Of a stretch of DNA of 37,297 bases, positions 1,922 through 30,601 are shown piece by piece; within the stretch, counting starts at the first letter, position 1; every line of letters begins with the position of its first letter. Source of the DNA: Candidatus Tayloriibacteriota bacterium (GTDB lineage Bacteria; Patescibacteriota; Minisyncoccia; Phycocordibacterales; PALSA-1337); the NCBI GenBank assembly GCA_026395105.1, contig JAPLZH010000005.1, forward strand, positions 1-37,297. The letters are read 5' to 3'. The notes beneath the pieces were generated by a model. The model saw only the letters and a list, made by a program, of their open reading frames with translations. It did no database searches and was not told the origin of the DNA. The position numbers and the translations under genes were made by a program.

Positions 1922-2108
1922 GAAATGCACAAGCGCATAATTCTCCAAGCAATACTTTCAATGCGATCACTAAAAGTGCGAAAGATTATTAAGGATAACC
2001 CCAGAAAACATACCGAAGTAAGTTACCAGAACGTCCTCTATAAAAAATCAATTTGTCTGCGTGAACAGACAACATTGTTTGGAGAATTATGCGCTTGTGA
2101 AGATTTCG
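1922..2108 (+). ncRNA. Candidate structured RNA (6S-like layout) or MITE-like inverted-repeat element; class unknown
   Basis: 1928-1953 pairs with 2074-2099: 26 bp, 25 Watson-Crick plus one G:U (1949:2078) that exists only on the + strand. Possible extension 1922-1926/2104-2108. Internal 7-bp hairpin 2053-2059/2066-2072 abuts the closing helix. Lies in the 271-nt gap between pilB and ruvB. Confidence 0.3.
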
Positions 2109-2135
2109 TGAATAGCTTAGCATAATTCGATTTTA

Positions 2136-12565: not shown

Positions 12566-12712
12566 ATGTCATTCACATATAAACCTAAAAAGATAAAAAG
12601 AGCGCGTTCACACGGATTCCTAAGACGCATGAAAGATAAGGACGGAAGAAATGTTCTCGCACGCAGACGCGCAAAGGGTAGAAAATCCCTCACTGTTTCC
12701 TCATCAAAATAA
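12566..12712 (+). CDS. rpmH: 50S ribosomal protein L34
   Basis: Not in the ORF track because it is short. My own translation gives [48 protein letters not shown], matching the L34 signature (..RSHGF..RM....GR.VL..RR.KGR..L). Its stop overlaps the rnpA ATG (TAATG). Confidence 0.9.
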
Positions 12713-13044
12713 TGCTAAGTAAAAGGAATAGGCTCTCAAAAAAGCTGTTTTTAGAGGTTTTTGAGAAAGGGTCTGTCTATAGATCTGGGATTTTAATGTG
12801 CAAAGTGCTTAAAGACCCTAAATTAAAGGGCCTTTTTGCTGTTTCAATTTCCAAAAAAGAGGTAAAAACGGCGGTAGAAAGGAATAAAATCAGAAGGAGA
12901 TTCTATTCAGCTATAGAGAAAGATATAAAAAAGAATAAAGAATTACCGCTCGGCATCATCTTTTTCGCCAGAAAAAACACATTAGAACTGGATTTTAAGG
13001 TTCTTTGTGAGGAAGTGGCTCGCATTATTGCTAAAATCAGATAA
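12712..13044 (+). CDS. rnpA: RNase P protein component
   Basis: 110 aa, basic. RNR motif region AVERNKIRRRFYSAI. Canonical rpmH-rnpA-yidC order. Confidence 0.85.
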   Translation: MLSKRNRLSKKLFLEVFEKGSVYRSGILMCKVLKDPKLKGLFAVSISKKEVKTAVERNKIRRRFYSAIEKDIKKNKELPLGIIFFARKNTLELDFKVLCEEVARIIAKIR

Positions 13045-13053
13045 AATAGACAG

Positions 13054-13794
13054 ATGACTTATCTATATCACGCATTAGTATCAGTTCCCCTATATAACGG
13101 CTTCATTTTGCTTTTCGATGTGATTCCCTGGCTAGACGCTGGAATGGCCGTTATTATCTTTACTATTATAGTTAAACTCATTCTCTTCCCTCTCGCTAAG
13201 AAATCTGTCGTCACACAGTTAATGATGAAGAAGGTTGATCCAGAGGTGAGAAAAATAAAGGCAAAGTATCCGAATGATAATCAAAAACAATATCCCGAGA
13301 CAATGGCTCTCTATAAAAAACATGGAATAAATCCCCTTTCTAGTATTTTCCTCCTTTTGGTTCAGCTCCCAATACTCCTCGCCCTATACTCTATTTTTTA
13401 CAGCTCTGGCTTACCTAAGGTTGATTCCTCTCTTTTATATTCCTTCGTGTCTATACCTCATATAGACATGTTTTTCCTAGGTTTTTTAGATATTAGTAAG
13501 AGTAACTGGATAATTGCCCTACTCGCCGCTATTTCCCAGTATTATCAAATAAAACTTTCTGTTCCTGCCGTTCCACCGAAGAAACCGGGAGAAACACCTA
13601 GTTTTCAGGATGAGCTCGCTAGAAGCATGGGCTCAAATATGAAATACGTTTTTCCGGTAGTGATTTTCATCATTTCTTTCAAATTAGCCGCCGCCCTCGG
13701 TATTTACTGGGTAGTAAGTAATCTATTCATGATCGGCCAAGAACTCTTTGTTAAAATAAAACTAGAAGCCGAGTACGCGAATAAAACACTCTAA
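13054..13794 (+). CDS. yidC: YidC/Oxa1-family membrane protein insertase (short, Gram-positive type)
   Basis: 246 aa, polytopic. Conserved KYPNDNQKQYPETMALYKKHGINPLSS..LLLVQLPILLALY block. Confidence 0.88.
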   Translation: MTYLYHALVSVPLYNGFILLFDVIPWLDAGMAVIIFTIIVKLILFPLAKKSVVTQLMMKKVDPEVRKIKAKYPNDNQKQYPETMALYKKHGINPLSSIFLLLVQLPILLALYSIFYSSGLPKVDSSLLYSFVSIPHIDMFFLGFLDISKSNWIIALLAAISQYYQIKLSVPAVPPKKPGETPSFQDELARSMGSNMKYVFPVVIFIISFKLAAALGIYWVVSNLFMIGQELFVKIKLEAEYANKTL

Positions 13795-13810: not shown

Positions 13811-15097
13811 CTATTTTATTTCAAGAGACCAGAGAGAAAGGTCTCTTTTATTCATGAATATTAAGTATCCGTCTTTAGGATCGATGGATATATTATAGGC
13901 GTCTATCGCCTTCCCCGAAAGAGAATAAAGGTCGCCGATCATAGTTACTTCACCTGTTTCCGTGTCATATTTCCAGACCCTGTCTCCCGGAAAAACTAAA
14001 CCTTTATACCAATCATCTGGATAAATTCCGTTCGGAATGTTATTCGGCACTGCGCAGTAAATCGTCTTATTTTCCACCGTTCCCCAAGCACATTTTTCGG
14101 TCAAAGTTTTAAGCACCGTGTTTTCAATAGTCTTTTCTTTTGTCTTATATATAGAAAGGGTCAAAATCCCCCCAGGAGCTGTCGTCGAAAAGGCTATCTC
14201 ACTCATATCTCCATTTGGAAGAACTGTTAAACCTGTTCCAGAAACGATTTTCGTCATTTCAGCCTTTTTAATATCATAAGTGTATGCGGAACCCACGCTA
14301 ATAGACGAGGCTTTTGAAGAAAATATAAGGGTGTTTTGATTTGGCCAAAAGAGATTCCAGCTCTCTAATGGTGAAGAAAAAACCTCGACTACATTACCCG
14401 TAACTGTGTCCTGTATAAAGCCTTTAACTCCTGGATTTGTCTTTACCAGAAAGGCAAAGGATTCATTTTTTACATCTTTTGGTGAATTCGCTACAGCTAC
14501 TACACCTGTCGGTATATATGAAGTTCTAACGGCTTTAATAGTGGATGTGGCGAGCACGGTGGTCGTTCCTACTTTTATAGGCTTAGGGTCAATTATCGAA
14601 AGAAGCTCTGTATTTACTGTATTTTCATCATTCTCATCTAGATTCCTAATTACTAGAGACTGAGCTTTCTTTGACCAAAAGGCCTCATAGATTTGAGAAA
14701 GGGTTTTATCAGAAATTCTCGTGACATCAGTTCCTGTAACCTTCGTTTCCATAATATTTCCTAGTCCCCTGTCGATATACCTGATTATAGTCGAACTGCC
14801 TGTGGTGGATGCTACAGCTCCAGCTACTGGGTCTGCAGAAATGAGCCTGAGCTTTGGAATATTTGGATTAGTGGTCGAGGCAAAGACAAAAGGAGTCGAT
14901 GTGGCTCTCGGTGTAGATGTACTATTCCCTCCTCCAGAATCACCACCGAATGGATTAAAGGTCGGATTCGTTCCTGTTCCAGTACCAGTGCCCGGCGTGG
15001 TATCACCCGGCTTATACATGAATAAATAATAATAAGTGCCCACCCCTATAAGGAGTATGATTATTACAGAGATGATTATAAGGGTTTTGTTTTTCAT
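13811..15097 (-). CDS. Membrane-anchored extracytoplasmic protein with a beta-rich (propeller-like?) domain; last gene of the T4SS-like operon
   Basis: 428 aa. N-terminal TM (LIIISVIIILLIGVGTYYYLF), Thr/Gly/Pro/Ser linker (PGTGTGTGTNP...), then a long beta-strand-rich region. 1-nt gap to the upstream gene. Confidence 0.7.
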   Translation of the reverse strand: MKNKTLIIISVIIILLIGVGTYYYLFMYKPGDTTPGTGTGTGTNPTFNPFGGDSGGGNSTSTPRATSTPFVFASTTNPNIPKLRLISADPVAGAVASTTGSSTIIRYIDRGLGNIMETKVTGTDVTRISDKTLSQIYEAFWSKKAQSLVIRNLDENDENTVNTELLSIIDPKPIKVGTTTVLATSTIKAVRTSYIPTGVVAVANSPKDVKNESFAFLVKTNPGVKGFIQDTVTGNVVEVFSSPLESWNLFWPNQNTLIFSSKASSISVGSAYTYDIKKAEMTKIVSGTGLTVLPNGDMSEIAFSTTAPGGILTLSIYKTKEKTIENTVLKTLTEKCAWGTVENKTIYCAVPNNIPNGIYPDDWYKGLVFPGDRVWKYDTETGEVTMIGDLYSLSGKAIDAYNISIDPKDGYLIFMNKRDLSLWSLEIK

Positions 15098-15098
15098 T

Positions 15099-16364
15099 CT
15101 ACTTCTTTAGATTGCTTAATAAGGTCTTTGCTTTTGCTATCTCTGTGTCAGCGTATGTAACAACCTCGTTTTTTGAGTTTGGGCTAAGATTAGTCTCCTG
15201 GCTAATTAGTGTCTTTTGTGACTCCATTTTGTCTATTAGTTTCTGTATATCTCTCGCTTTTTCGGTTGCACCATATGCGTATTGCGCGGTAGCACCGACT
15301 CCACCAACAGAAAGATTGTTTTTTACATCAGGTTTCTCATATATATATTGTGTAGCAGAAGACCATCCATATAGCTGAACCTGGTTTTTTGTAACTGTTT
15401 TTTCGTCAGCAATTATTTTTAATAATTCAGTTTCATTTGATCGTCCTATTGCGTCAATTTTTAAATCCTCAAACTTTTTGTTTATTGATGAGATCATTTT
15501 TTCATCCAAAAGTGTTTTTTCTCCAACCAACACCTTTTCTTTTTCCATAGCAACGTCTTTGTCGTACGAAGTTGAGTCTTTGTTTACAGCCAAGTGCGCC
15601 GCCTCTAGGCCACGCATTACATCCTCAGAAAAACTTTGTGACTTAACCAACGCCGCCTTTTTTTCTACCAAAGACTTTTCTGCGTTCGGTATACTTTCGT
15701 TTTCTAGGGTAATTTTTTCTTCATCACTTATTAGTGGGTCATTTAATCTTTCTTGATAATCATATATTTGATTTTGGACATCAGTAAGTTCGTTTCTAAT
15801 TTGTGCTCGGTTTACATATTCTCCAGTTAGTGTTTTTCTAAGATTTGCTTCTGCTTGTGTGTTTATTATTAGCGCGAAGGCAGAGGTTGTGTCTACCTTC
15901 ACTCTGTCTAGGCTGGTGTTAAACTCCACATACCGCGGGTCTATGGTGTAGAGAATGATATATGAGGCGAGGGTAAGAAGAAGGCCGATGAGGGCGTTTT
16001 GAATAATTTTCTTTCCTTCGGTTTTCGCTGGGATAAGGTCTGTCGTGGCGTATGTAAATCCTCCATAAAAAACCATAATAACAGCTAGAACGACGGCTAT
16101 TCCGACGGCCAGCTTAAACATATAGTTAATATAGTAAGCTAAGTTTGGAATAGTTTTCTGCTGGCCAGTACAACCTGGGCCAGAAACACACGGTAGTGGT
16201 TCCAGAAGAGTATAGGTAATATCTTTTACTGGACGAACTCCAAGATCTACCCCACCTGTGAGGGTGCCAGCGGTCGTCGTCGCAAAGACGAGCGGAACAA
16301 AGGAGAAAAGACAGACGAAAACGGTTATGGCGGAAAAGATAATTTTTTTAATTTGAATTTTCAT
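15099..16364 (-). CDS. T4SS pilin-like (VirB2/TrbC-like, CPR type) domain fused to a ~270-aa helical/coiled-coil region
   Basis: 421 aa. Signal peptide (..PLVFA/TTT), LLEPLP motif, two hydrophobic helices (LAVGIAVVLAVIMVFYGGFTY; ALIGLLLTLASYIILYTIDP) typical of T4SS pilin-like proteins, then a K/E/L-rich heptad-like region running to the C-terminus. Confidence 0.6.
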   Translation of the reverse strand: MKIQIKKIIFSAITVFVCLFSFVPLVFATTTAGTLTGGVDLGVRPVKDITYTLLEPLPCVSGPGCTGQQKTIPNLAYYINYMFKLAVGIAVVLAVIMVFYGGFTYATTDLIPAKTEGKKIIQNALIGLLLTLASYIILYTIDPRYVEFNTSLDRVKVDTTSAFALIINTQAEANLRKTLTGEYVNRAQIRNELTDVQNQIYDYQERLNDPLISDEEKITLENESIPNAEKSLVEKKAALVKSQSFSEDVMRGLEAAHLAVNKDSTSYDKDVAMEKEKVLVGEKTLLDEKMISSINKKFEDLKIDAIGRSNETELLKIIADEKTVTKNQVQLYGWSSATQYIYEKPDVKNNLSVGGVGATAQYAYGATEKARDIQKLIDKMESQKTLISQETNLSPNSKNEVVTYADTEIAKAKTLLSNLKK

Positions 16365-17391
16365 TTGTTATAGAAAAGTTTATTACTGAAGAATTTTCGG
16401 CTTTTTGTAAGATATGCAAAGGGGTCGTGACTTCTGAATATATGGTAGATGCCCCACTCACACCAGACTTCGGTCTTAGAACGACGCTGTTTTTCCCCGC
16501 GAGCTCAGGATATTCTGTTCCGCCGATTAGCCAAATATAATTCATCTTACTCGTCAAAACGTCCTTTTTTGTGAAGTTGTAGGGTGTAGCTAAAACTTCT
16601 ATCTCATTATTCGTCATGGTATATGGAGAAGTAATGGCTTTATTCCAAAGCGTTCCGAAAAGAGGATTCTTTTCATAAAAGACGACCTGCGGATCTTCTG
16701 GTTCTAGATTTATTCCCATTTGCCCGACCATTTCATTCTCAGGAGAAACTACAGTTACGGTTATAAAAGCAGATTTTTGTAAAACATCCCCAGGAAGAGA
16801 TAATCTCTGCTTCCCTCTTCCGGAATCATCCCCTAATACATTTGAATCTTTTTTCCATGTGTAAACTAAATCTTTCGGATTAAGGACTTTTCCACTCTTT
16901 GTCTTAAAATACGGCTGTGCTACTACATATACTGTACCCTGATATGTATAATGCGAAAGTCCTTTATAAAGAGGTGGAACATAGCCATCTGTTTCCCAAA
17001 GAAGGTCTATTTGTGTCGGATTTATGGAGAGTGTTTTTGAAATAATATCACCCGCTGTGCTTTTAATAAGAGCCTTAATTTCTGTCGTCGTTCCCGTATT
17101 ACCGAGAGTCACATTTATAGTTTTTAGTCCGACAGCTTTACTGACGACTTTTTCATTAACGAGCCATGTTATCTCAGAACTGTCTAAGTCCACATTATGA
17201 CTGTCTATAGTTATATCAACCTTACTATTCGGGGTGGGATATGCAGGGTTAGATATCATCTCTATATTTCCTTTAACATAGGCCGGAAGAACACCGCCGA
17301 CTGTTAGCTGGGCGGATGCGTATGAATAAAGGAAAAAGAAAGAAAATATAATAACTGTAGAGAAAAATGTGGCGCGAAATGTTTGCCTCAT
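16348..17391 (-). CDS. Secreted protein with three tandem beta-sandwich-like repeats
   Basis: 347 aa. Signal peptide (..SYASA/Q). Three ~100-aa segments each carry an aromatic-x-W motif (EITWLVNEKVV, LVYTWKKDSNVL, MNYIWLIGGTEY). Overlaps the next gene by 17 nt. Confidence 0.65.
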   Translation of the reverse strand: MRQTFRATFFSTVIIFSFFFLYSYASAQLTVGGVLPAYVKGNIEMISNPAYPTPNSKVDITIDSHNVDLDSSEITWLVNEKVVSKAVGLKTINVTLGNTGTTTEIKALIKSTAGDIISKTLSINPTQIDLLWETDGYVPPLYKGLSHYTYQGTVYVVAQPYFKTKSGKVLNPKDLVYTWKKDSNVLGDDSGRGKQRLSLPGDVLQKSAFITVTVVSPENEMVGQMGINLEPEDPQVVFYEKNPLFGTLWNKAITSPYTMTNNEIEVLATPYNFTKKDVLTSKMNYIWLIGGTEYPELAGKNSVVLRPKSGVSGASTIYSEVTTPLHILQKAENSSVINFSITNENSN

Positions 17392-17421
17392 GACGCCTAT
17401 TTTAACATATTTATTAATAAC

Positions 17422-17970
17422 TTATCCAAGTTTTGAGGGGACAGCCATTTCATCAGACGGTTCCTGAGGGTTTTGTATATTCCCCCTCTTTAAACTTTTT
17501 ACAAAAGGGCTATTTTCTACGCCATATGATTTAAATTCTGGGGCGACGCGTGATCTTATCTGATCCACACTCATCGGCTTTTGAGGAATGGGGTTTCTCG
17601 TCTTTAGTCTTATGCTTTTAGCACCCGCTGGATTAATAGCTGCTACTACATTTATTCCAGTTTTATCTTCCACTCTGACCATGAAGAGAATGGCTAGCAT
17701 TGCGGCCGTATTAAAGGGAATTTCTTGTATTAATGGAATGATTTTCGCTATAACGTCTATAATCACGACAGCCACCCTTTTCCCGCTAATTATCCCGAGC
17801 CCTTTAAGGTAAAAATATATTCCGTAAATAACCGCAGCGACCACCTCTACTAGCCCGCCCACCACAGGCAGGAAAAAAGTGATTATGTCTAGAATAATCG
17901 CTGAAAGCACTAAAAAAACACTGGTTGTTGTACTTATTCTGTATTTCGTTTTGTCTTTTTGTTTATCCAT
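17422..17970 (-). CDS. Small polytopic membrane protein with a basic/disordered C-tail
   Basis: 182 aa with 3-4 hydrophobic helices. The start overlaps the VirB4 stop by 8 nt. Confidence 0.6.
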   Translation of the reverse strand: MDKQKDKTKYRISTTTSVFLVLSAIILDIITFFLPVVGGLVEVVAAVIYGIYFYLKGLGIISGKRVAVVIIDVIAKIIPLIQEIPFNTAAMLAILFMVRVEDKTGINVVAAINPAGAKSIRLKTRNPIPQKPMSVDQIRSRVAPEFKSYGVENSPFVKSLKRGNIQNPQEPSDEMAVPSKLG

Positions 17971-19777
17971 TTGCCGCTTCTAAATCTTTCTTTGCCTGCT
18001 TTATGGCTAGAACTTGCTGAGGGTTAGTAGTGATGATTTGATCCTCTGTGTATGAAGCCATAACTTTTAAGGCTACATGCTTCATTCCGACGAAGAATAT
18101 TCCCTCCCCCACATCTGATTCTAAGAGTAAATACTTTTCTTCATCAGTGAGGTTAAATGTTTGCTGAATTTTATCTATGGAAGACGGAGACTGTTTCAAA
18201 AGAATTTGAATAGAAGAGTTCGTGATAATCGGCAAACCGTAAGGAGAGTTTAAAAAGTCATCCACGTCCTGGGTGATCGTCGCTAATCCTAAATAATATT
18301 TTCTTCCACGCTTTGCTAAGCTGAGTAAAAATGATGCGGTGTCTTCTGATTTCATCATAAACCAAGCCTCATCTATTACTAGCAGGCGCTTCTTTAAATT
18401 CTTTCGTACAGCGCTCCAAATATGGTGTGTGACTATGTACATAGCCACAGGTTTTAATTCCTCCTCCATATCTCGAAGGGAGAAAACCACGAATTTTTTA
18501 TCTATATCCACATTCGTCGGTCTATTTATGAATCCAGACCAAGTACCCCTCGTGTATTTAGAAAGTCTCTGAACGAGTGAATCTCCTCCATCCATTCCGG
18601 CTAAAACTAATTCGAAGTCAGATAATAGAGGTGGCTCTGTATTTGAGAAATCTGATTCCGGCGTGATGTCTTTAAGGGCATATGTTTCTGAAATAGCACG
18701 GTCGACTATAGCGTCCTCTGTTTGAGAAAGTCCACCTAACATTATTCGGAAAAGCCCGACGAGGCTCACTATATGTGATCTTAAAACATCTGCCCTAGAT
18801 TCATCTTCTCTAGCGGCGGGCAGATCGAATGGATTAATGTGATGCTCCGAAGCGAGTGATATATTAAAGTACTTCCCTCCTGTAGCCTCGGCCATATATT
18901 CATATTCTTTTTCTGGGTCGATTACTATAACATCTGTATCGAACATGAGCGTGCGTAGAATTTCTAGCTTCGTGGCATAAGATTTTCCAGAACCCGCTTT
19001 TGCAAAAGTGACGGAGTTATAGTTTTCTAGAAGGAATCTATCGAAAAGCACTAGGCTAGAATTATGTCTATTTACTCCATAAAGAATTCCCTTATCTGAC
19101 GTGAGGTCAAATGATACGAATGGGAAAAGGCTAGAAAGAGGCGAAGAATTAAGCTTAGAATGCACCATTAATTCATCATTCGCGAGAGGAAGAATGCTCT
19201 TATAGCCCTGTTCCTGCTGGAACAGGGCGGGTTTTATATATATTAATTTCGACTCCAAAATAGACTTTATTTCCGACTCTATTTTATCTAATTCATTTTC
19301 AGTATTTCCGTATATTGTAATGTATACACCGACATCGAATATCTTTTCCTGGGCCTGCATTAACTGATCTCTTAAGCCTTCTAGGTCCTGATAAGCCGTG
19401 TCTAGAACTGGATCACGCACGAGCCCCTTCTCTTCCCTAGACTGTATCTGGCTTTGCACTTCAGCTACTTTTTTCTGGAAGTGGCGGAGAATTTTCGCTG
19501 TGTCTATGGGGTGAACGAATATGGAAATATTAAAAACTTTGTCCAGATTAATGATGGGTGCGAACCAGCTGTCAGTAAGAAAGCGAGGATAAGAGATGAC
19601 GAAGAATGTTCGGGCCATCTTTTCTCCTAGATTTATTTCTTTCGGACTTATTTTAAGAGCTGATGGGGCGATGATATCTTTTAGCTCTAAAACTCCAGCC
19701 TCATAAATTTCCTGAGGAAGAAGTGATGTTATTTGTGGCGCTTTATTCCCGCCGAATAATTTTGAAAAAATTCCCAT
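17963..19777 (-). CDS. virB4: VirB4/TrbE-family type IV secretion ATPase
   Basis: 604 aa. VirB4-type N-domain (RTFFVISYPRFLTDSWFAPI), Walker A FAKAGSGKSY, Walker B RLLVIDEAWFMM, downstream GLATITQDVDDF. Confidence 0.88.
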   Translation of the reverse strand: MGIFSKLFGGNKAPQITSLLPQEIYEAGVLELKDIIAPSALKISPKEINLGEKMARTFFVISYPRFLTDSWFAPIINLDKVFNISIFVHPIDTAKILRHFQKKVAEVQSQIQSREEKGLVRDPVLDTAYQDLEGLRDQLMQAQEKIFDVGVYITIYGNTENELDKIESEIKSILESKLIYIKPALFQQEQGYKSILPLANDELMVHSKLNSSPLSSLFPFVSFDLTSDKGILYGVNRHNSSLVLFDRFLLENYNSVTFAKAGSGKSYATKLEILRTLMFDTDVIVIDPEKEYEYMAEATGGKYFNISLASEHHINPFDLPAAREDESRADVLRSHIVSLVGLFRIMLGGLSQTEDAIVDRAISETYALKDITPESDFSNTEPPLLSDFELVLAGMDGGDSLVQRLSKYTRGTWSGFINRPTNVDIDKKFVVFSLRDMEEELKPVAMYIVTHHIWSAVRKNLKKRLLVIDEAWFMMKSEDTASFLLSLAKRGRKYYLGLATITQDVDDFLNSPYGLPIITNSSIQILLKQSPSSIDKIQQTFNLTDEEKYLLLESDVGEGIFFVGMKHVALKVMASYTEDQIITTNPQQVLAIKQAKKDLEAANG

Positions 19778-19781
19778 AATT

Positions 19782-20414
19782 TTATGTTATTTGAATCGGC
19801 TTTTCCACATCCCCTGGATTAAATATCTTATAAAACAGCTCGACGATTTCCTCAGTACCTAGCGGAACGACTCTGATTCCTGAGCGAATAAGTCCCTGCT
19901 CCACCACACTCACCCTCTGGTCTAGCTGACTTCTATTTTCTTCGAAGTCTTCCGTCTTTGATACCGCAGAATCTCTTCTATTTAAAATATTCGTGATCGG
20001 ATTTCCTTTTGTCTTAATGAGAGTCGGAGAATATGGAATGACTATAAAGAAACTCTTATTCATAATATTCGTCTGCTCAGTGAAAGTGCGAATAAATTCT
20101 ATATATTCCCTCGTCTGTATTTTCATAAGTTCACTTAGCTGTTCTTTGTATCTATCCTCTAAAAGATTAAGATAGGGCCTGATATCTAGGCGCTTTGACT
20201 GTATGAAAAACTGAACTGAGAAATCCAGAGAGTTTAAAAAGTTCTGAAACTGCATGATGATAGCGTTCTGTTCATCTCCTGATTTTAAGGCAAAGTTAAG
20301 GGAGGAGGCCATGATGATAGCGCGCATTCCCCCGTCTTTAAGTATAACGACGCCGTCACGGACTTCTTTGATGGGGACGAAATCTTGAGTTGTGTTTTGT
20401 GAAGGAGCTAACAT
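19782..20414 (-). CDS. Soluble protein resembling the N-terminal domain of Gram-positive-type VirB4 (TcpF/Orf16-like), with no ATPase domain
   Basis: 210 aa. TQDFVPIKEVRDGVVILKDGGMRAIIMASSLNFALKSGDEQNAIIMQFQNFLNSLDFSVQFFIQS follows the pattern I recall at the start of monoderm VirB4 proteins. No Walker motifs. Confidence 0.55.
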   Translation of the reverse strand: MLAPSQNTTQDFVPIKEVRDGVVILKDGGMRAIIMASSLNFALKSGDEQNAIIMQFQNFLNSLDFSVQFFIQSKRLDIRPYLNLLEDRYKEQLSELMKIQTREYIEFIRTFTEQTNIMNKSFFIVIPYSPTLIKTKGNPITNILNRRDSAVSKTEDFEENRSQLDQRVSVVEQGLIRSGIRVVPLGTEEIVELFYKIFNPGDVEKPIQIT

Positions 20415-20860
20415 TATCTTTGATTTTTATTTGAATAAATACTTTCGTGAATATCTAGGCTCCACGCTAAATCTTTTAATTTACTTTCAGAAAGTTTCGG
20501 CACAGATAGTCTGGTTAGGGCGCTAGCATCTTCTTTCATTTCGGCATTTGTTTTTTTACCTAATTCTTTTGCAGTCAGTTCAGTCTTTTTCCACAGATAA
20601 AGTTTTTTATGAATGGCGTAAGTAAAAGCAGATTCTACCATATTTATAAAAGGCTTATTATTTACTTTATAGAAAGACAGAGCTAGAACAAAGGCCACCA
20701 CGACTAATATGATTGGGATGGCGAGCATTGTATACGGAATAACGCGGTAAATTATAAAGGAAAGACCGGCCCCACCAGCAATGTATACGAACTGCTTTAG
20801 TGTGAATGGGCCGAAGATTTTATCTTCAACTTCTATGAACTGAGGGACTTGAAAGTTCAT
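20414..20860 (-). CDS. PrgI/VirB3-like small membrane protein
   Basis: 148 aa. N-terminal VPQFIEVEDKIFGPFTLKQF followed by two TM helices, as in the PrgI family. Sits two genes upstream of VirB4. Its stop overlaps the next ATG (TAATG). Confidence 0.6.
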   Translation of the reverse strand: MNFQVPQFIEVEDKIFGPFTLKQFVYIAGGAGLSFIIYRVIPYTMLAIPIILVVVAFVLALSFYKVNNKPFINMVESAFTYAIHKKLYLWKKTELTAKELGKKTNAEMKEDASALTRLSVPKLSESKLKDLAWSLDIHESIYSNKNQR

Positions 20861-20874
20861 GCGTATATTTTACG

Positions 20875-21396
20875 CTATTTTATCGGTTCACGGTAGGGGT
20901 CAGACGTGTATGAATTCTGTGGAGGAGGAACATCTATCTTTTTCACTGTAGTTAGGGTGCCCTGAAGGCCCTGATCGAGGAGATTTGGGACATTTGGGAC
21001 GGATGAGAGGGTGGAAGATGTGGTGGGTGCCGACGGAATTACCAGGGAAGATTCCTGTGTTGTTTGTGGGGATGTGTTTATTTGTGCTGGATTTTCATTA
21101 GTATTTTGATTTTCTAGACTAGAGCGCATCTTTTCCCTAAGAGGCATGAGAACTTCGGTGTTAAATGTATTTACGAGCTCCCCCGCTAGTTTTTCGTCTA
21201 TTTCTAAATTACCTGCGACCTCTCCGATTAGACGATCCCTTTTAATATTTCCAAAAAGAAAAGATTTGACGATACCGACGAACTGCCCCACCTGATCTAT
21301 GTGTAAGGAATACTTTGTAGGAATAGATGCTATCTTATCATCGAAATCTACAGAGTTAATATATTCTTTTATTTCTGGTGAGATATTATTTTCCAT
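20875..21396 (-). CDS. Hypothetical soluble protein with a Ser/Thr/Pro/Gln-rich disordered C-terminus
   Basis: 173-aa ORF inside the operon with no TM segment or signal peptide. No recognisable motifs. Confidence 0.55.
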   Translation of the reverse strand: MENNISPEIKEYINSVDFDDKIASIPTKYSLHIDQVGQFVGIVKSFLFGNIKRDRLIGEVAGNLEIDEKLAGELVNTFNTEVLMPLREKMRSSLENQNTNENPAQINTSPQTTQESSLVIPSAPTTSSTLSSVPNVPNLLDQGLQGTLTTVKKIDVPPPQNSYTSDPYREPIK

Positions 21397-21445
21397 TTTT
21401 TATATTTTAACTACTACTTGTGCTTGTTACTGCCACCTTTGGTTC

Positions 21446-23476
21446 TTATGGTAAATTGAAATCTTTTCTATTCTTGTTTATATATGCACCAGCTGACGGG
21501 CCCTTTCCTGCTTTATGTTCGGATAGTATTTTTTTGGCCAGTGCAGTCGTCAATTTTACATTAGTATTATTTTCTTGGAGTTTCTTAATCTGAGATCCTG
21601 TAAGAATATTTGCCGCCTCCGTACCCATCAAAGCACTCTTATCTATATTTTCTTCATTACCTTTTCCTGCACTAGCTTCGTGGATTGCCATTAGGTCTTC
21701 TGTATCAAGCTTGGTGAAGTTACTCTTTGTTTTACTATCCATATGCTCCTTTTCTCCCAAAGCTTTTACAAAGCCATTATGCCTTGCTCCTATTAATTTA
21801 TCATAATCCTCCTGCTTAACTTCACCGGCCTGTAACTTCTTTTCTACCGCATCATAATAAGACTGAGGTAACATAGCAGCGATGGTCTCACCCTTCTCCT
21901 TATTTTCTTTGAGAATGTCTTTTACACCGATATTCTGTATTTCTGCAGGGGACATTTTATTAAGTTTGTCAGCAAGATCATTTTTTGACTCAGCGCTATC
22001 TTTATTAAACTTTTTAAGTGATTCGCCTAGGGCTGCTTCATTTGATAATTCAATTCCTTTTTTAGCAATGTCTTTTGATGTTTTTGATTCGCTTTCAGCT
22101 AATTTTCCTAGAGTGCTACCCTGAATTGCCTGTGTTGTCATGGCCCTAAATGCACGGCCCGTTCTACTATTACCAAGCGCGGTATTTCCCCACTTCTTGT
22201 CTGTTGCCTCTACGCTTTTTCCGAACTTCTCGACTGCCCACCTACCACCCATCTGGTAAGCTCCTGCCTTCGCCATACTCCACGGATTAAGTTTGTCCTG
22301 TGCCCAGCCGGTTCCTTTTTCTGCCCAGGAGGTAACGGCTTTCGCCCCTTCTATTCCAGAATCCTTCGCTGCTTTTAATGCGGCTAAGAATAATGATAAA
22401 AGTATGAAGTAGTTTATGAGTATTCCGATAGCGCTCTGCCCAGGATTCGCGAGGAAACTTCCGAAAGTACTTACTGCCTGCTGGCTAGCTAAAGCGCTAG
22501 TCGCCCCGGAAGATGCGGAGATGGTATTTGCTATATGTGCTATTTCTGATTCTGTGGCATTCGCTGACGGCTCTAATATTTTAAGGGCTATGTAGATAAT
22601 AGCTAAGAATATAGGTGCAAAAGTGGCCTGAGAGATAAACTGCTTCCAGTATTTTCCACCTTCTGATCCTAAATGATCACTGAGAACTGGTATTTTAATG
22701 AAGGAAAAGGCAAAGAGAGGAGATATGGCGAGGAATATTATGAGCTGTATCGTTCGGAGTAACATGAGCACAGCACCAGCAGCGAAAACTATTCCCGCGA
22801 CGACCATTATTATTCCAGAGACAGCAGCCTGTACGAAAAATGTAATAGGGTTCGCTAATTTATCCTTCGTAATTCCTTTGTACACTGACGGAAGCTTCAT
22901 TCCATTCATGAATACATCAGAGAGGCCACCGTCTAGTCCTGCGGAGCTACCCAGACTAACTTCTGCTGTCCTGTCCGGAATTATCGCATCATAGATACCG
23001 ATAGCCACCACATTCGTAGCATCGATAATAGTCTTTGTTATAAATAAACTGAAGTTTATAAATAATCCGGCGAAGACTATGCTTACCACTAACTTTTTTA
23101 CGCTTGATGAATCACCCTTCCCTACTATTGTGGCTATAGAAACATAGAGTAGGATGAAAATAAAGAATATGCTTGAAAAATCTCTAAGCACAGTCCAGAC
23201 TACATTAATTCCTGGAACACCAGCGACGATCTTTGATATTTGTAAAGTTAGAGAAATCGCTACGTTTAAGGCTAAACCTCCGACGACCACAGTGTATGAG
23301 CAAATGGTTTGGAATGCGCTACCGAGTACGTATAAGATTTGATCAACGACAAAGATGAAACCATCCGCCACTAAACCTCCTCCATTTTGTGCAAAGGAAA
23401 TGTGTGGCAAAAGTAAAGCTGAAAGAGCTGTTATGCTAAGGAGTGTGAAGAGTTTTGTGGTTAGTCTCTTTTTCAT
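21446..23476 (-). CDS. VirB6/TrbL-like polytopic membrane protein with a ~300-aa hydrophilic C-terminal domain
   Basis: 676 aa. Signal peptide (..HISFA/Q), at least 6 hydrophobic helices across residues ~35-370, then a K/E/A-rich soluble region. Assigned from topology and operon position, not from a motif. Confidence 0.5.
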   Translation of the reverse strand: MKKRLTTKLFTLLSITALSALLLPHISFAQNGGGLVADGFIFVVDQILYVLGSAFQTICSYTVVVGGLALNVAISLTLQISKIVAGVPGINVVWTVLRDFSSIFFIFILLYVSIATIVGKGDSSSVKKLVVSIVFAGLFINFSLFITKTIIDATNVVAIGIYDAIIPDRTAEVSLGSSAGLDGGLSDVFMNGMKLPSVYKGITKDKLANPITFFVQAAVSGIIMVVAGIVFAAGAVLMLLRTIQLIIFLAISPLFAFSFIKIPVLSDHLGSEGGKYWKQFISQATFAPIFLAIIYIALKILEPSANATESEIAHIANTISASSGATSALASQQAVSTFGSFLANPGQSAIGILINYFILLSLFLAALKAAKDSGIEGAKAVTSWAEKGTGWAQDKLNPWSMAKAGAYQMGGRWAVEKFGKSVEATDKKWGNTALGNSRTGRAFRAMTTQAIQGSTLGKLAESESKTSKDIAKKGIELSNEAALGESLKKFNKDSAESKNDLADKLNKMSPAEIQNIGVKDILKENKEKGETIAAMLPQSYYDAVEKKLQAGEVKQEDYDKLIGARHNGFVKALGEKEHMDSKTKSNFTKLDTEDLMAIHEASAGKGNEENIDKSALMGTEAANILTGSQIKKLQENNTNVKLTTALAKKILSEHKAGKGPSAGAYINKNRKDFNLP

Positions 23477-23492
23477 TAGTTATATAAGTATA

Positions 23493-25088
23493 CTATAGTC
23501 CGCTCGGAATATAATGTGGGAATTGTTGACATTCGATTAACATCTGCGAAGCCTTTGCTCTAACTGGTATCATTTTTTGTTCTATTCTAGCTCGCTCGGT
23601 CTGAGATACTGTAACATCCTGAGCCTTATGTAGAAGTGTAGAGTTTAGAATATCTAGGTCTATTAAGGAGCTAGAAATGTCGCTTATAACAGTAGCAGAT
23701 TCTATCTTTAATTTAATAGCCCCGAGTTCCTTTAGATTACTGTCAGAAGCATTCGTCTTTTTATTTAATGAAGGAAGCTCAGGGGAAACTTCACTCTTAA
23801 TAAGATTATCCGCTCTCGTTATTTGCTGATTAGCAATGTTTACTTCGGAAGAACTTAATAATCCAGAATTTATTTTATCCACATAGCACCTCTCGACTGT
23901 ATTAAGTGAATCTACGGCAGTCATGGCTGTAGAAAGTGCGTATTTATAATTATCATTATAAGAAGACTCTACGTTTATTAATCCGCCGATCTGACTTAAT
24001 GCTGTAGTTTTATTATCTGCTAACTGAGCATCATTTTGTAATTTCTCTAGATTAGCTCCCTCTCCGCTAAAGTATGAAGATTTATCTCCAGAACCACTTC
24101 CTGATAATGCCCTTACTCCTGATGTAATAGCCTTTTGCATTAACTGAGCGACGAGTGCATTAATCACTTCATCGAATGCGTCGGCTAATTCTAGCTGTCT
24201 TACTCCGCTTCCTAAGCTAGTTTCGAGTGATGAGCTTATAACAGATCCCGGAGTCTGAACCTCACACTTCTCTTCAGTGCTCGTCATAGAATTAGTGGTC
24301 GAATCATATTCTGGCATAGCGGCGAGGTCTTCCTGAGATACTCCACTCGGCGGAGCAGAGGAGGTGGGAATTTTTTTACATGCACTCCACGATAGGAAAC
24401 CTTTTCCCTGCCCTAATTCATCTCTCTTTAACTCAGTTTTTTTACCGAGCCTGTAGTACAGTTCTGTATTTGCTTGAATATACGAGCCGTAAATATTATT
24501 CTGTGGGCTCTGCGTCATCGTTACAAAGGAATTCCAGCCACCGTTTTTACTAAAATCTCCGTTTAAGAATCCGCGCATAGCCTGTCCATTTATGGAAGCA
24601 TTCTTCACTGCATTTGTGGAGTTCTTAATAACATCATTTAGGGTACAGGAAATTCTTCTCTTAAAAGGAGAATATTTAAATGCTAGGGCTAATCTGATGT
24701 CTATTTGGAATGGACTGCATAGGAAATTTAAATCAGGGCTGCTTTCTATGAAGGTACCTATTATTTCTCCACTAGCATCTGCAAAGAAGCCTGCTGGGTC
24801 GGAGACGAAGGCTGGATTTCCTTTAAAGCCACCATTAATCCAGCTTACTATATCCTGAGTCATCGTCTTTATTAAAGTCTTCGCCGCCATAGTGCCTATA
24901 GCATTAAGAGACATAGGAGAACAAATGCCTAAAAAGGTAAATCCACATTCCTTTTTTCCAATTCCTCCAGATTCATTGGTCGGAACAGCCATCTGCGCAT
25001 TTACTGAAAGTAGCGGATAGAATAGTCCCCCGATCATACTTATCGTTATGGCAAAGGAGAAGAAAGTTTTTCTAAAATTATTAAGCAT
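23493..25088 (-). CDS. Secreted protein, function unknown
   Basis: 531 aa. Signal peptide (..LSVNA/Q), several Cys, helical C-terminal half. 4-nt gap to the upstream gene. Confidence 0.7.
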   Translation of the reverse strand: MLNNFRKTFFSFAITISMIGGLFYPLLSVNAQMAVPTNESGGIGKKECGFTFLGICSPMSLNAIGTMAAKTLIKTMTQDIVSWINGGFKGNPAFVSDPAGFFADASGEIIGTFIESSPDLNFLCSPFQIDIRLALAFKYSPFKRRISCTLNDVIKNSTNAVKNASINGQAMRGFLNGDFSKNGGWNSFVTMTQSPQNNIYGSYIQANTELYYRLGKKTELKRDELGQGKGFLSWSACKKIPTSSAPPSGVSQEDLAAMPEYDSTTNSMTSTEEKCEVQTPGSVISSSLETSLGSGVRQLELADAFDEVINALVAQLMQKAITSGVRALSGSGSGDKSSYFSGEGANLEKLQNDAQLADNKTTALSQIGGLINVESSYNDNYKYALSTAMTAVDSLNTVERCYVDKINSGLLSSSEVNIANQQITRADNLIKSEVSPELPSLNKKTNASDSNLKELGAIKLKIESATVISDISSSLIDLDILNSTLLHKAQDVTVSQTERARIEQKMIPVRAKASQMLIECQQFPHYIPSGL

Positions 25089-25092
25089 AGAT

Positions 25093-25977
25093 TTATTTTG
25101 ACATCAAAAAATATCCTGGATCACTAGGAGTAAATTTTACACCCATTGAAATTATATAGCTAGAAATTCCACTTAATGCATTTTCCTGTGCCACTGTCGC
25201 ATCTTTATGACTGGCCATTCCCTGCAGGCTTCGCACTGGATCTTTCTCGGTGCTCGCTATAGCTAATAAAGATTCGGAACTTTTATATAATGCATTTAGG
25301 AAATCTGTATGAAGACTGATCAATGCCTTCGGTACAGTTATTTTAGAAAGTTCTACCGTTAAATTTTTATACATCATACCCACCTCATTCATCTGAATAT
25401 AAAAAGAAGAAGGGTTCTGATTTATCTGACTCTCCGTGGCCAATACCTGATTTTGTTTATATTTCTCAACGTATTTTAAATAGATAGTAGAAAGAGTGTT
25501 ACCATAAACTTTCAGATTTTCTGGTGTATTTTCTTCGGTCTGAATATCACTCATTTTATACTTTATCACATTAAACTGTGCTTCCTGATTAGCTAAAACC
25601 TCTTCGATTATAGCGTTCTGACTAGCCTTATCCCCCACCGTTCCATTTTGCTCTAATGTCATATATTTAGAGAAAAAGCTTTTTGAGAATGCGCTGGTAG
25701 CTGTTTCTTTTTCGGTGCTTGTGGCTGTCTTTTTGGTAGTCGAAAGCTTTTTACCGTCCGTAGTGGCGTCATCAGATGAATCCTGCCAAGTCTTAAATTC
25801 ATTAGGATTCCATGTACTCGTGCTGGAAACCGTAATCGGCGCGGAAACTTTAATATCCTGGGCTTTATAAGTAGCTAATGCCTTTCTGTTTCTGTATTCC
25901 ACCAAGAGAAATAGACCCCCGATAATAATCAAAGATAATGTGATTAATAAAAAGATTTTTGCGCTTGGTCTTTGCAC
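25093..25977 (-). CDS. Bitopic membrane protein (N-terminal TM plus helical ectodomain); first gene of the operon
   Basis: 294 aa with an apparent GTG start. TM helix IFLLITLSLIIIGGLFLLV. VirB8-like topology only; I saw no sequence similarity. Confidence 0.6.
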   Translation of the reverse strand: MQRPSAKIFLLITLSLIIIGGLFLLVEYRNRKALATYKAQDIKVSAPITVSSTSTWNPNEFKTWQDSSDDATTDGKKLSTTKKTATSTEKETATSAFSKSFFSKYMTLEQNGTVGDKASQNAIIEEVLANQEAQFNVIKYKMSDIQTEENTPENLKVYGNTLSTIYLKYVEKYKQNQVLATESQINQNPSSFYIQMNEVGMMYKNLTVELSKITVPKALISLHTDFLNALYKSSESLLAIASTEKDPVRSLQGMASHKDATVAQENALSGISSYIISMGVKFTPSDPGYFLMSK

Positions 25978-26003
25978 GATTTAAATCGTTTTCGAACAGG
26001 CTA

Positions 26004-26012
26004 ATTATAGCA
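26004..26012 (-). promoter_or_regulatory. Extended -10 element (TGCTATAAT on the minus strand) for the T4SS-like operon
   Basis: The reverse complement of 26004-26012 reads TGCTATAAT, 27 nt upstream of the GTG at 25977. Confidence 0.35.
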
Positions 26013-26048
26013 AATTATAATGAAACATTTATTATTTCTGTGGACAGG

Positions 26049-26056
26049 TGTATAAT
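26049..26056 (+). promoter_or_regulatory. Extended -10 element (TGTATAAT) for the divergent small gene; possibly a leaderless transcript
   Basis: TGTATAAT ends 6 nt before the ATG at 26063. Confidence 0.4.
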
Positions 26057-26062
26057 TTACCC

Positions 26063-26467
26063 ATGAATAAGAAAATTTTATCTATCTTTATACTCTCCCT
26101 AATAATTTTTTCCTCCTTTTTCTTATTTTCAAATAAGGTGGAGGCTGTGGGGATGCCTTTTGGTGGTTATGTAACAGTGATTATTCCTTGCACTTGTAAT
26201 GAAGAAACAGGAAATGAGTGGGTTTTTATGTCTCCATTGTATTTTTCTTCCACCCCAATAGCAGGTGGAGGATTGGTTTATCAGGCGCTCGGATCGATTC
26301 CATATGAATATTTTATTATTCCGCCTGTTCCCACGACTTGGCTTCTTGGCGATTTTATTCCAGGCGCAGGACTATGTATGGTGGGCAAAAAGCCTTATTG
26401 TTTCCCCCTTCCTTCTTATGGAAGGATCCAGTCTTACGGCTCTAGTATGCCGGGGGCTAGTATATAA
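26063..26467 (+). CDS. Small secreted Cys-containing protein, divergent from the T4SS-like operon
   Basis: Start moved from the ORF-track GTG (26048) to the ATG at 26063, because the GTG lies inside the -10 box. 134 aa. Signal peptide (..NKVEA/V). Mature part is Gly/Pro/aromatic rich with 4 Cys (CTC...C...C). Confidence 0.6.
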   Translation: MNKKILSIFILSLIIFSSFFLFSNKVEAVGMPFGGYVTVIIPCTCNEETGNEWVFMSPLYFSSTPIAGGGLVYQALGSIPYEYFIIPPVPTTWLLGDFIPGAGLCMVGKKPYCFPLPSYGRIQSYGSSMPGASI

Positions 26468-26468
26468 G

Positions 26469-27266
26469 TTATATAATTTTAAATAGATTTGAGGCGATTT
26501 TCACCCAAGTCTCTAATTTAACCGTTTCTGCGCGGGTGTTTATGTCTAGATTTAGCAGAGACCATATATTTTCTAAGTCTTTTTGATCATAGAATTCGGC
26601 TAGATTTGAGATAAGCTTCTTTCTTTTATGCGAAAAGCCGGTTTTTACTATGTCAAAAAAATCTTCCTCATTTATTTTATTATCTTCAAAAATCTTTTTT
26701 GAAATGTTGTAGATGCCGATTACCGCAGAGTCTACAGATGGTGCTGGTCTAAAACTTCCAGATTTAACTGTTCGAATGTATTTAGGACTTCCGTATACTT
26801 TTACGCTGATAGACAGAATGCTTTCTTTTTCATCTACCATGCGCTCGGCCACTTCTTTTTGGACGAGGAAAACCACCGTGCTCGGATAATCCTCTGACTC
26901 TAGGAACATTCTAGTAACTTCTCCGGTTATATAATAAGGAATATTCGCTATAACTTTATACTCCCCTCTTTTCAAACCGAGCCCGCCCGGATTTTTCTCT
27001 AAAATATCTCCGTGAATTAAAATAAATTTTCCCTCAGCTTTTTCTTTTGCAAATTTCTTTTCGAGAATCGGAATTAAACGATCATCTTTTTCTACTACCA
27101 CTACCTTCTTTGCACTTTTTAAAAGCTCACTCGTGAGTGCGCCTTCTCCAGGTCCGATTTCAAGCACTGTATCTCCTGCCGAAATATTTCCAGCGAGTGC
27201 TATATCATGAAGCGCGCCCGCATCATGAAGAAAATTTTGCCCTAAAGATTTCTTTGCGAAAATCAT
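26469..27266 (-). CDS. rsmA: 16S rRNA (adenine1518/1519-N6)-dimethyltransferase
   Basis: 265 aa. LGQNFL N-terminal motif, SAM-binding VLEIGPGEGALT, NIPYYIT motif. Confidence 0.93.
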   Translation of the reverse strand: MIFAKKSLGQNFLHDAGALHDIALAGNISAGDTVLEIGPGEGALTSELLKSAKKVVVVEKDDRLIPILEKKFAKEKAEGKFILIHGDILEKNPGGLGLKRGEYKVIANIPYYITGEVTRMFLESEDYPSTVVFLVQKEVAERMVDEKESILSISVKVYGSPKYIRTVKSGSFRPAPSVDSAVIGIYNISKKIFEDNKINEEDFFDIVKTGFSHKRKKLISNLAEFYDQKDLENIWSLLNLDINTRAETVKLETWVKIASNLFKII

Positions 27267-30585: not shown

Positions 30586-30601
30586 ATCTCTTTTGGGAGA
30601 A

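Follow-up and report, generated by a model that had tools for sequence, protein, structure and literature searches.

The window analysed here, which is the entire 37,297-nt contig of a metagenome-assembled genome of Candidatus Taylorbacteria (class Paceibacteria), contains a run of eleven tightly packed minus-strand genes, named g1 to g11 from position 25977 down to 13811 in the open reading frame (ORF) table, that appear to encode a type IV secretion system (T4SS). This locus is very probably the Paceibacteria version of the T4SS already described for the Patescibacteria clade, a derivative of the Gram-positive (MPF-FATA) conjugation systems that is inherited vertically, as a core-genome apparatus beside the replication origin. 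Five of the products are recognisable as T4SS parts from their sequence matches (Table 1), namely a VirB4 ATPase (g7), a TrsD-like protein corresponding to the N-terminal domain of VirB4 (g6), a PrgI/VirB3 protein (g5), a VirB6-like protein for which support is weak (g3) and a protein with a VirB2-type pilin domain (g10). The operon is bounded by rpmH-rnpA-yidC and dnaA-dnaN on one side and by ksgA-uvrD on the other.

Operon structure and conservation across relatives

A sequence-only reading that preceded this analysis had described eleven packed, co-directional genes, and the ORF table reproduces its gaps and overlaps exactly: the genes are separated by 4, 16, 49, 14, 4, 30 and 1 nt, or overlap by 1 nt (TAATG at 20414), 8 nt (17963-17970) and 17 nt (16348-16364). 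The extended -10 element that it had proposed was also located by direct reading. This element, TGCTATAAT, sits 26 nt upstream of the GTG start of g1, within the 70-nt divergent intergenic region, and is a putative promoter of the extended -10-like type for the g1-g11 operon. Generic promoter and terminator consensus scans of the window gave matches at chance level, a result that is neutral on TGCTATAAT, on the operon boundaries and on the idea of a single operon. In the hydropathy scan, signal or transmembrane (TM) segments were observed in 8 of the 11 operon products, and the nine counted previously are reached only as 9 of 12, when the divergent gene g0 is included. The G+C content of the operon (0.38-0.41) shows no departure from that of the flanks (0.35-0.40).

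The conservation of the locus was assessed in species-representative genomes, where, among the 600 matches listed for pattern-matched stretches, at least 572 encode a VirB4 relative. We kept 80 loci (L001-L080), and the counts out of 39 given below refer to those with full 10-kb flanks, compared by tblastn. This comparison of VirB4 neighbourhoods revealed that the g1-g11 order and the housekeeping flanks are conserved. The operon genes are found in the same order and orientation in the 39 species-level loci, with matches to g2, g3, g5, g6, g7, g9 and g11 in all of them, to g10 in 36 and to g1 in 33; the lower counts for g4 (27) and g8 (16) are explained by both genes being short and fast-evolving. 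On the flanks, dnaN-dnaA-rnpA-yidC is present in 34-39 of the loci, ksgA in 37 and uvrD in 31, and the ksgA and uvrD flank is also kept in the loci L081-L083. In L081, whose VirB4 is 73% identical to that of the window, the order is comM, M23/LysM, uvrD, ksgA, g1-like, g2, VirB6-like, g4-like, PrgI, TrsD-like, VirB4 and g9.

This conserved synteny, which includes the flanks, indicates that the operon belongs to the core genome and is no mobile element. The presence of the system is thus not patchy or strain-specific across the 39 species-level loci, and the earlier proposal of a chromosomal, core-genome envelope machine is borne out by the synteny, by its retention at 73% VirB4 identity and by the absence of a G+C shift.

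The individual genes differ strongly in their degree of conservation. The median identity is 83% for VirB4, in loci that were chosen by VirB4 similarity, 67% for g6 and 54% for g5, compared with 59% for DnaA, 58% for UvrD, 51% for DnaN and 48% for KsgA among the housekeeping genes. The extracytoplasmic partners have median identities of only 24-39% (g1 24%, g2 32%, g9 33%, g11 32%), and g3 reaches 29% across its membrane part. The contrast between the high identity of VirB4 and the low identity of the extracytoplasmic proteins points to strong constraint on the motor and rapid divergence at the surface.

Pfam scans of the 31 ORFs of the whole 37-kb contig detected no relaxase, VirD4-type coupling protein (T4CP), VirB11 or integrase domain, in agreement with the sequence-only reading, and no tRNA genes and no repeats bracketing the operon were found in the window, as had also been stated. 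The "single ATPase" of that reading is not derivable from one 37-kb contig, as VirD4-like homologues usually lie far from virB4.

Recognisable T4SS subunits and their unnamed partners

The VirB4 protein g7 carries Walker A (AGSGKS) and Walker B (VIDEAW) motifs, as read in its translation. Its nearest solved relative is the C-terminal domain of the Gram-positive Thermoanaerobacter VirB4 (4AG5, 7e-40), whereas R388 TrwK is matched only at 1e-6, which argues for a Gram-positive ancestry. More than 8000 homologues were found, the best 120 clusters of which are at least 86% identical to g7, and the best matches, judged from best hits and source names, are all Patescibacteria, Paceibacteria or Taylorbacteria proteins at this level of identity.

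The sequence-only reading had recognised four T4SS parts and seven products without a nameable family. It had missed g6, so that the parts are five and the unnamed products six. In NCBIfam g6 matches VirB4_plasma (4.3e-12, model positions 101-253), TrsD/TraD (2.6e-6) and VirB4_CagE (1.9e-4, model positions 3-170), all of them partial matches under the whole-protein cut-offs, and it covers about 170 N-terminal residues of the VirB4 models. Its orthologue in L081 bears the Pfam TraC-like domain PF26593. The stop codon of g6 lies 4 nt ahead of the virB4 start, and on these matches VirB4 is split into g6 and g7 (210 + 604 aa), like the staphylococcal trsD-trsE pair. As g5, which also has a weak TcpE match in Pfam, and g6 are directly upstream of virB4, the TrsD-like and PrgI/VirB3 genes stand in the adjacency known from related systems.

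The VirB4, PrgI/VirB3-like and VirB2/TrbC-like pilin assignments made earlier have Pfam support, in the case of the pilin chiefly through its orthologues: the T4SS_pilin family (PF18895) matches g10 of the window at 1.1e-4, under the gathering score, and all 28 orthologues examined, with a best value of 7e-10, while TrbC matches 2 of the 28. Besides a signal peptide it has the conserved motif YTLLEPLPC, a pair of hydrophobic helices (at about residues 79-140) and a coiled-coil tail of some 280 residues, which is variable. Its conservation is confined to the pilin domain (28% coverage in the tblastn loci), and a profile search with the tail against all PDB sequences returned generic coiled-coil matches only.

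The claim that g3 is a VirB6-like polytopic protein holds for its polytopic nature: hydropathy predicts about 7-9 hydrophobic segments within residues 5-367, followed by a hydrophilic C-terminal tail of 300 residues. Its identity as VirB6 is weaker. The window copy has no Pfam match, and no match in the family-alignment profile search against all PDB sequences; 3 of 29 orthologues match TrbL/VirB6 (best 1.6e-4), and a more distant positional equivalent, in L082, carries TrbL_3 (PF19590).

The six remaining partners (g1, g2, g4, g8, g9 and g11) are, from these alignments, conserved, fast-evolving families tied to the T4SS locus and no orphan genes. The four proteins g1, g2, g9 and g11 are predicted to be extracytoplasmic, g8 is a small membrane protein, and g4 is presumably cytoplasmic. 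Searches against Pfam, NCBIfam, PHROGs and PDB sequences leave all six unnamed, as had been supposed for these genes. The sole assignment from the NCBIfam and PHROGs scans of the unknowns was that of g6, and family alignments of g1, g2, g3, g4, g8, g9, g10 and g11 gave nothing significant against all PDB sequences. The unknowns were also considered as standard parts of a Gram-positive conjugation module, and neither the profile searches nor the g1 and g2 folds gave such an assignment for any of the six. Fold-level descriptions of g1, g2 and g9 are given here for the first time.

As proposed before, the first gene of the operon encodes a bitopic protein, with a single TM helix (residues 8-26) that a disordered linker (about 37-90) joins to an all-alpha ectodomain (93-294). 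The AlphaFold2 (AF2) model, built from 135 sequences, has a mean pLDDT of 86.2 and a pTM of 0.69. No match to this model was found in the PDB by Foldseek (best E 0.4), and no Pfam, NCBIfam or PDB sequence match was obtained; g1 is thus modelled confidently as an all-helical fold without a solved relative. A missing VirB8-like (NTF2) protein can be ruled out for g1 on the basis of this all-alpha ectodomain and the Foldseek result, and the labels VirB8-like and VirB5-like, considered for g1 and g2, were rejected as Foldseek gave no PDB match at E<=0.001. The family is large: an exhaustive search of representatives at 50% identity (E<=1e-3) gave 1671 proteins, all of about 240-345 residues, where a word-indexed homologue search had given 2. 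The contexts of two distant relatives, on contigs of about 2 kb, display the adjacency ksgA-g1-g2. The family consensus of the linker is Asp-rich (DxDxDGLxDWEE...DxDxD) and resembles bacterial thrombospondin type-3 calcium-binding repeats; faint TSP3_bac matches are seen in L082 (598-2496), which has a tandem pair of g1-like genes, and the stretch is degenerate in g1 of the window.

The 531-aa secreted protein and the anchored beta-rich protein noticed earlier correspond to g2 and g11, as confirmed by hydropathy and alignments. In g2 a conserved N-terminal domain (about residues 60-330), with a WINxGFxGxPxF motif and conserved cysteines, is followed by a long C-terminal helical bundle (343-522), which AF2 predicts with a pLDDT of about 98, compared with only 40-65 for the N-domain. 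No significant PDB fold (Foldseek, E<=0.001) or sequence match was found. A stretch of about 30 residues near the N-terminus matches DUF4141 (PF13605) in 15 of 66 g2 relatives (best 4.6e-7, 29.5 bits against a cut-off of 30); the window protein itself has no DUF4141 match and none of the relatives reaches the gathering score, so this kinship is a lead only. Proteins of this family are listed beside traJ, near traG, in the gene tables of one paper on Bacteroides conjugative transposons. Some g2 relatives replace the helical bundle with Ig-like, F5/8-type-C (discoidin), PKD or InlB-repeat domains, which suggests a modular, surface-exposed end.

The g9 protein, which has a signal-like N-terminus, had been described as a beta-sandwich protein with three repeats. 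The repeats stand at profile level, where its three segments match each other pairwise in hhalign (probability 76-84%, E about 1e-5), but they are not detected in the single sequence (z <= 1.6). They are probably Ig-like beta-sandwiches: BiPBP_C is matched by 6 of 29 orthologues (1.2e-6), and Ig_3, PKD_3 or Cadherin-like by a few. In g11 a Gly/Thr/Ser-rich linker precedes a beta-rich ectodomain with a conserved Cys pair, which is possibly a beta-propeller, given a sub-threshold TolB propeller match (E 0.0068, residues 197-306) and scattered weak propeller matches in orthologues.

The two smallest partners are g4 and g8. In g4 a conserved helical N-domain of about 85 residues is joined by a hypervariable Pro/Thr-rich linker to a C-terminal DPYREPI peptide, invariant among orthologues, that looks like a docking motif; the protein, for which no Pfam, NCBIfam or PDB match was found, is presumably a cytoplasmic adaptor. 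The conserved motifs of g8 are EDKTGI and N..GVR.P, and no family or PDB match was obtained for it; a second pilin related to g10 was considered and rejected (hhalign probability <1%). The divergently transcribed g0 encodes 139 residues from a GTG codon or, more likely, 134 from the ATG at 26063. It has no family match, is found in just 10 of the 39 related loci and lies, on this evidence, outside the conserved core.

Flanking genes and the origin region

Table 1 Features of the 37,297-nt window, with their position, strand and the basis of each assignment
Feature	Position	Strand	Basis
g1, first operon gene, 294 aa, bitopic	25093-25977	-	hydropathy, AF2
g2, secreted protein, 531 aa	23493-25088	-	alignments, AF2
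g3, candidate "extended" VirB6, 676-aa polytopic membrane protein	21446-23476	-	hydropathy; position upstream of PrgI-TrsD-VirB4
g4, 173 aa, no TM segment	20875-21396	-	alignment, hydropathy
g5, PrgI/VirB3-like small membrane protein, 148 aa	20414-20860	-	Pfam PrgI 1.1e-9, over gathering score
g6, TrsD-like/detached VirB4 N-terminal domain, 210 aa	19782-20414	-	NCBIfam partial matches
g7, VirB4 ATPase, 604 aa	17963-19777	-	Pfam P-loop_TraG 1.9e-27, AAA_10, DUF87
g8, small membrane protein, 182 aa, 2-3 TM segments	17422-17970	-	alignment, hydropathy
g9, secreted protein, 347 aa, three ~100-aa homologous beta-sandwich (Ig-like) repeats	16348-17391	-	profile comparison, signal-like N-terminus
g10, VirB2-type T4SS pilin-domain protein, 421 aa	15099-16364	-	PF18895 T4SS_pilin
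g11, last gene, 428 aa, N-terminally anchored	13811-15097	-	hydropathy, alignment
Extended -10-like TGCTATAAT	26012-26004	-	direct sequence reading; perfect match
g0, divergent small secreted Cys-containing protein	26048-26467	+	signal-like N-terminus
dnaN	9673-10773	-	Pfam
dnaA	11048-12388	-	Pfam
rpmH	12566-12712	+	read from translation
rnpA	12712-13044	+	Pfam
yidC	13054-13794	+	Pfam
ksgA/rsmA	26469-27266	-	Pfam
uvrD/pcrA	27276-29219	-	Pfam
LysM + peptidase M23 cell-wall hydrolase	29479-30585	+	Peptidase_M23 1.6e-30, LysM 1.4e-18 (Pfam)
421-aa ORF between the DksA/TraR zinc-finger gene and PNPase	32581-33846	-	no Pfam match
Polynucleotide phosphorylase (PNPase)	33895-36051	-	Pfam
NYN-domain nuclease	36058-36690	-	Pfam
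PilB/GspE-type T2SSE ATPase	194-1864	+	2.3e-116 (Pfam)
BRO-N-domain protein, 200 aa	3356-3958	-	5.8e-9 (Pfam)
Inverted repeat, the longest found in the window, with two arms of 46 nt (78% complementarity) spaced by 120 nt	1908-1953 and 2074-2119		inside ORF 1874-2125

The term "origin-proximal" used in the sequence-only reading rests on the rpmH-dnaA-dnaN arrangement and on DnaA-box-like 9-mers in the two intergenic regions that border dnaA, at positions 10898, 11001, 11013 and, as a perfect box, 12472. It finds no support in GC skew, which has no switch at dnaA, the cumulative skew falling monotonically over the window (1-37297). The minus strand carries the T4SS operon and most of the genes to the right of it, which would therefore face head-on a fork leaving an origin adjacent to dnaA.

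Beyond uvrD, Pfam identified an M23 + LysM peptidase, comM, a DksA/TraR zinc-finger protein, PNPase and the NYN nuclease, the last two lying about 8 kb off the T4SS operon and on the same strand as it. The absence of a cell-wall hydrolase from the operon, as stated before, is correct for g1-g11, where Pfam and NCBIfam found no hydrolase domain, but it overlooks the conserved M23/LysM gene located 3.5 kb from the operon on the opposite strand, which has the same position beside uvrD-ksgA-T4SS in L081. The M23 + LysM gene and that of a ComM/Mg-chelatase-like ATPase (29479-32086 in the window, 2410-5560 in L081) occupy the same places in both loci, which indicates that the conserved block exceeds the operon. 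From its domains and position the M23/LysM peptidase is a candidate functional stand-in for VirB1. In L081 a large Peptidase_M15_4 protein (21116-22220) is encoded straight after the g9 homologue, where the window has the pilin-domain gene, so some relatives hold a cell-wall hydrolase inside the operon.

At the other end of the contig the PilB-type gene, near the contig start, is followed by ruvB, the BRO-N protein, yebC and ruvC. The PilB/GspE-type ATPase belongs to type IV pilus or competence machinery and not to the T4SS. The longest inverted repeat of the window, which could be a structured RNA or a palindromic element, lies between pilB and ruvB. The BRO-N domain is usually seen in phage and virus proteins; here its gene lies among housekeeping genes.

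Relation to described systems and proposed function

The architecture of the locus had been taken as undescribed. This claim of novelty fails, as the system, its position and its content are already described (PMC10633639 in 2023; PMC12102498 in 2025), and the locus is probably a typical Paceibacteria example of the published system. Wang et al. (PMC10633639) reported in Southlakia epibionticum ML1 an essential T4SS (SEML1_0006-0019) that resembles Gram-positive conjugative systems, with essential pilin subunits and no recognisable coupling protein or relaxase. Quinonero-Coronel et al. (PMC12102498) surveyed 3,035 genomes, in which 2,425 VirB4s form a Patescibacteria clade nested in MPF-FATA, the commonest virB4 partner being TrsD, followed by PrgI/VirB3, VirB6 and VirB2-like pilins. 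VirD4-like T4CP homologues were found in 2,918 Patescibacteria genomes, mostly far from virB4 (only 148 nearby). In Paceibacteria and Microgenomatia the locus adjoins dnaA, dnaN, rnpA, ksgA and rpmH; VirB1 homologues are associated with virB4 in Paceibacteria, and some VirB1-type hits carry M23/LysM domains (PMC12102498). The Patescibacteria systems are listed as a distinct T4SS type in a 2025 nomenclature review (PMC12857230).

The window agrees with the Paceibacteria arrangement of PMC12102498 in having VirB4 with an adjacent TrsD, PrgI/VirB3, a candidate VirB6-like protein and a VirB2-like pilin, in its chromosomal position beside dnaA/dnaN/rnpA/rpmH/ksgA, in the absence of a relaxase and of an adjacent T4CP, and in the nearby M23/LysM hydrolase. 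Nothing essential differs; that paper leaves the other neighbours unannotated, whereas here they resolve into six position-conserved families. Southlakia, the sole member with genetics, where the system is essential for epibiotic growth, shares the Gram-positive-like and pilin-type subunits and the absence of a recognisable coupling protein or relaxase, and its low locus-tag numbers suggest an origin-proximal place. It differs in belonging to the class Saccharimonadia, in having six divergent pilins, and in the peptidase and lysozyme genes directly downstream of virB4, whereas in the window the single pilin-domain gene encodes a long coiled-coil tail and the hydrolase gene lies outside the operon.

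The staphylococcal and enterococcal MPF-FATA modules (pGO1/pSK41 trs, pIP501 tra, pCF10 prg/pcf) have in common with the window the TrsD + TrsE-type order, the PrgI/TrsC VirB3 homologue and the monoderm setting, and a Gram-positive VirB4 is the nearest solved relative. In contrast, these modules are borne on plasmids or integrative and conjugative elements (ICEs) and encode a relaxase, a T4CP and VirB8-like proteins, together with a VirB1-type hydrolase inside the operon, but no VirB2 pilin. The T4SS-type importers ComB of H. pylori and Ced of archaea work without a coupling protein or relaxase. They resemble the window system in their VirB4-family ATPase, membrane channel, pilin-like parts and chromosomal location, but ComB is a diderm system with VirB7, VirB9 and VirB10, and CedA/CedB are undetectably related to g1-g11 beyond the ATPase superfamily. 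The function of both is uptake and not export.

Judging by established T4SS biology, hexamers of VirB4 anchored through PrgI to the VirB6-like platform would extract pilin-domain subunits from the membrane, and these would polymerise into a pilus or tube through the thin monoderm wall. The neighbouring M23/LysM hydrolase may help the passage through the wall, substituting for VirB1, and the wall-spanning and host-contacting parts would be supplied by the helical domain of g1, the bundle of g2, the Ig repeats of g9 and the beta-rich domain of g11. The machine would serve contact-dependent exchange of macromolecules with the host cell that these reduced bacteria rely on, and not conjugation.

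As to the direction of this exchange, we tentatively prefer, by analogy, a model in which host nucleic acid or other macromolecules are taken up to one in which effectors are exported, because the importers ComB and Ced also lack a coupling protein and relaxase, because the T4CP homologue of Southlakia is dispensable while its T4SS is essential (PMC12102498), and because a preprint describes, in a cultured member of the Microgenomatia, the uptake of host RNA and tubes connecting epibiont and host that are possibly T4SS pili (bioRxiv 10.64898/2026.06.21.733656). The same preprint connects both PNPase and VirB4 with feeding on RNA of the host in the phylum, import of DNA or other macromolecules is also proposed in PMC12102498, and the T4SS has been named as a candidate route of nucleotide acquisition (PMC11665869).

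The opposite direction, in which the machine exports effectors or other proteins that subvert the host cell and nutrients then enter by other transporters, is somewhat unlikely. It was the original speculation for Saccharibacteria (PMC11665869) and is kept open by Wang et al. (PMC10633639), T4SSs that export Sec-delivered substrates without a T4CP are known (Ptl, Brucella VirB; PMC12857230), and T4CP homologues are common elsewhere in Patescibacteria genomes (PMC12102498). However, the Pfam scans turned up neither a T4CP nor a chaperone nor a recognisable effector, whether within the operon or next to it, and in Southlakia the T4CP homologue was not essential, unlike the T4SS (PMC12102498). 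The secreted, fast-evolving g2 and g9 could themselves be cargo, but, as expected of structural parts, their positions and lengths, like those of g11, are fixed across species.

It is quite improbable that the VirB4 system is an attachment organelle only, which assembles a pilus or adhesin complex to keep the epibiont on its host and translocates nothing. The pilin-domain protein and Ig-like repeats, the adhesin-type C-termini of g2 relatives (F5/8 type C, PKD, InlB repeats) and the rapid divergence of the surface parts would suit such a role, but the putative channel protein of VirB6 type and the very strongly conserved VirB4 are in keeping with a translocon, the window encodes a PilB-type ATPase, and type IV pili already serve Patescibacteria in adhesion and motility (PMC12102498, PMC12857230).

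Finally, an ordinary or decayed ICE, with its relaxase, coupling protein and integrase outside the window, is close to refuted: although Gram-positive conjugation modules are the source of the VirB4, TrsD, PrgI and VirB6 families, the contig measures just 37 kb and a UvrD/PcrA-type helicase and a TraR/DksA zinc-finger protein are nearby, the sequence-only reading rightly argued against a conjugative element, given the housekeeping synteny on the dnaA and ksgA sides in 31-39 of 39 species and in the lineage with a 73%-identical VirB4, the absence of integrase, tRNA, direct repeats or G+C anomaly in the window, the higher conservation of VirB4 than of DnaA, and the rarity of relaxase homologues in the phylum (109, in 103 of 3,035 genomes, 15 of them near virB4; PMC12102498).

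Several points weigh against the interpretation of the locus as a Patescibacteria-clade T4SS that exchanges macromolecules with a host. For the Paceibacteria T4SS both the direction of transfer and the substrate are pure inference, and a T4CP may lie elsewhere in the genome, which would keep export models open. The choice of comparison loci by VirB4 similarity inflates the identity of VirB4 relative to the other genes, and g7 is placed in the Patescibacteria VirB4 clade from best hits and source names and not from a VirB4 phylogeny. The VirB6 label of g3 in the window is weak. A VirB8-like NTF2 protein was not found in a survey in which g1 was modelled and g8, g9 and g11 were not. The 280-aa tail of g10 could hinder canonical pilus packing, and g10 is the sole pilin-domain gene found in the window, whereas Saccharimonadia have pilin arrays.

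A more specific proposal, which we regard as unlikely, is that the six unnamed proteins form an undescribed, Paceibacteria-wide extracellular module that replaces the VirB8, VirB1 and adhesin parts and would build, with the tail-bearing VirB2-type subunit, a host-penetrating tube that pulls host RNA, DNA or other macromolecules into the epibiont.

A large part of bacterial diversity belongs to the Patescibacteria, which depend on host cells, and apart from theirs no T4SS is known to be essential to the organism that carries it. The window defines a compact, syntenic unit of eleven genes with a very strongly conserved motor, its VirB4 exceeding even DnaA in these VirB4-selected loci. The novelty that remains lies in the six conserved, unannotated partners, which are concrete targets for the prediction of complex structures, for cryo-electron tomography and for genetics in the few cultured relatives.

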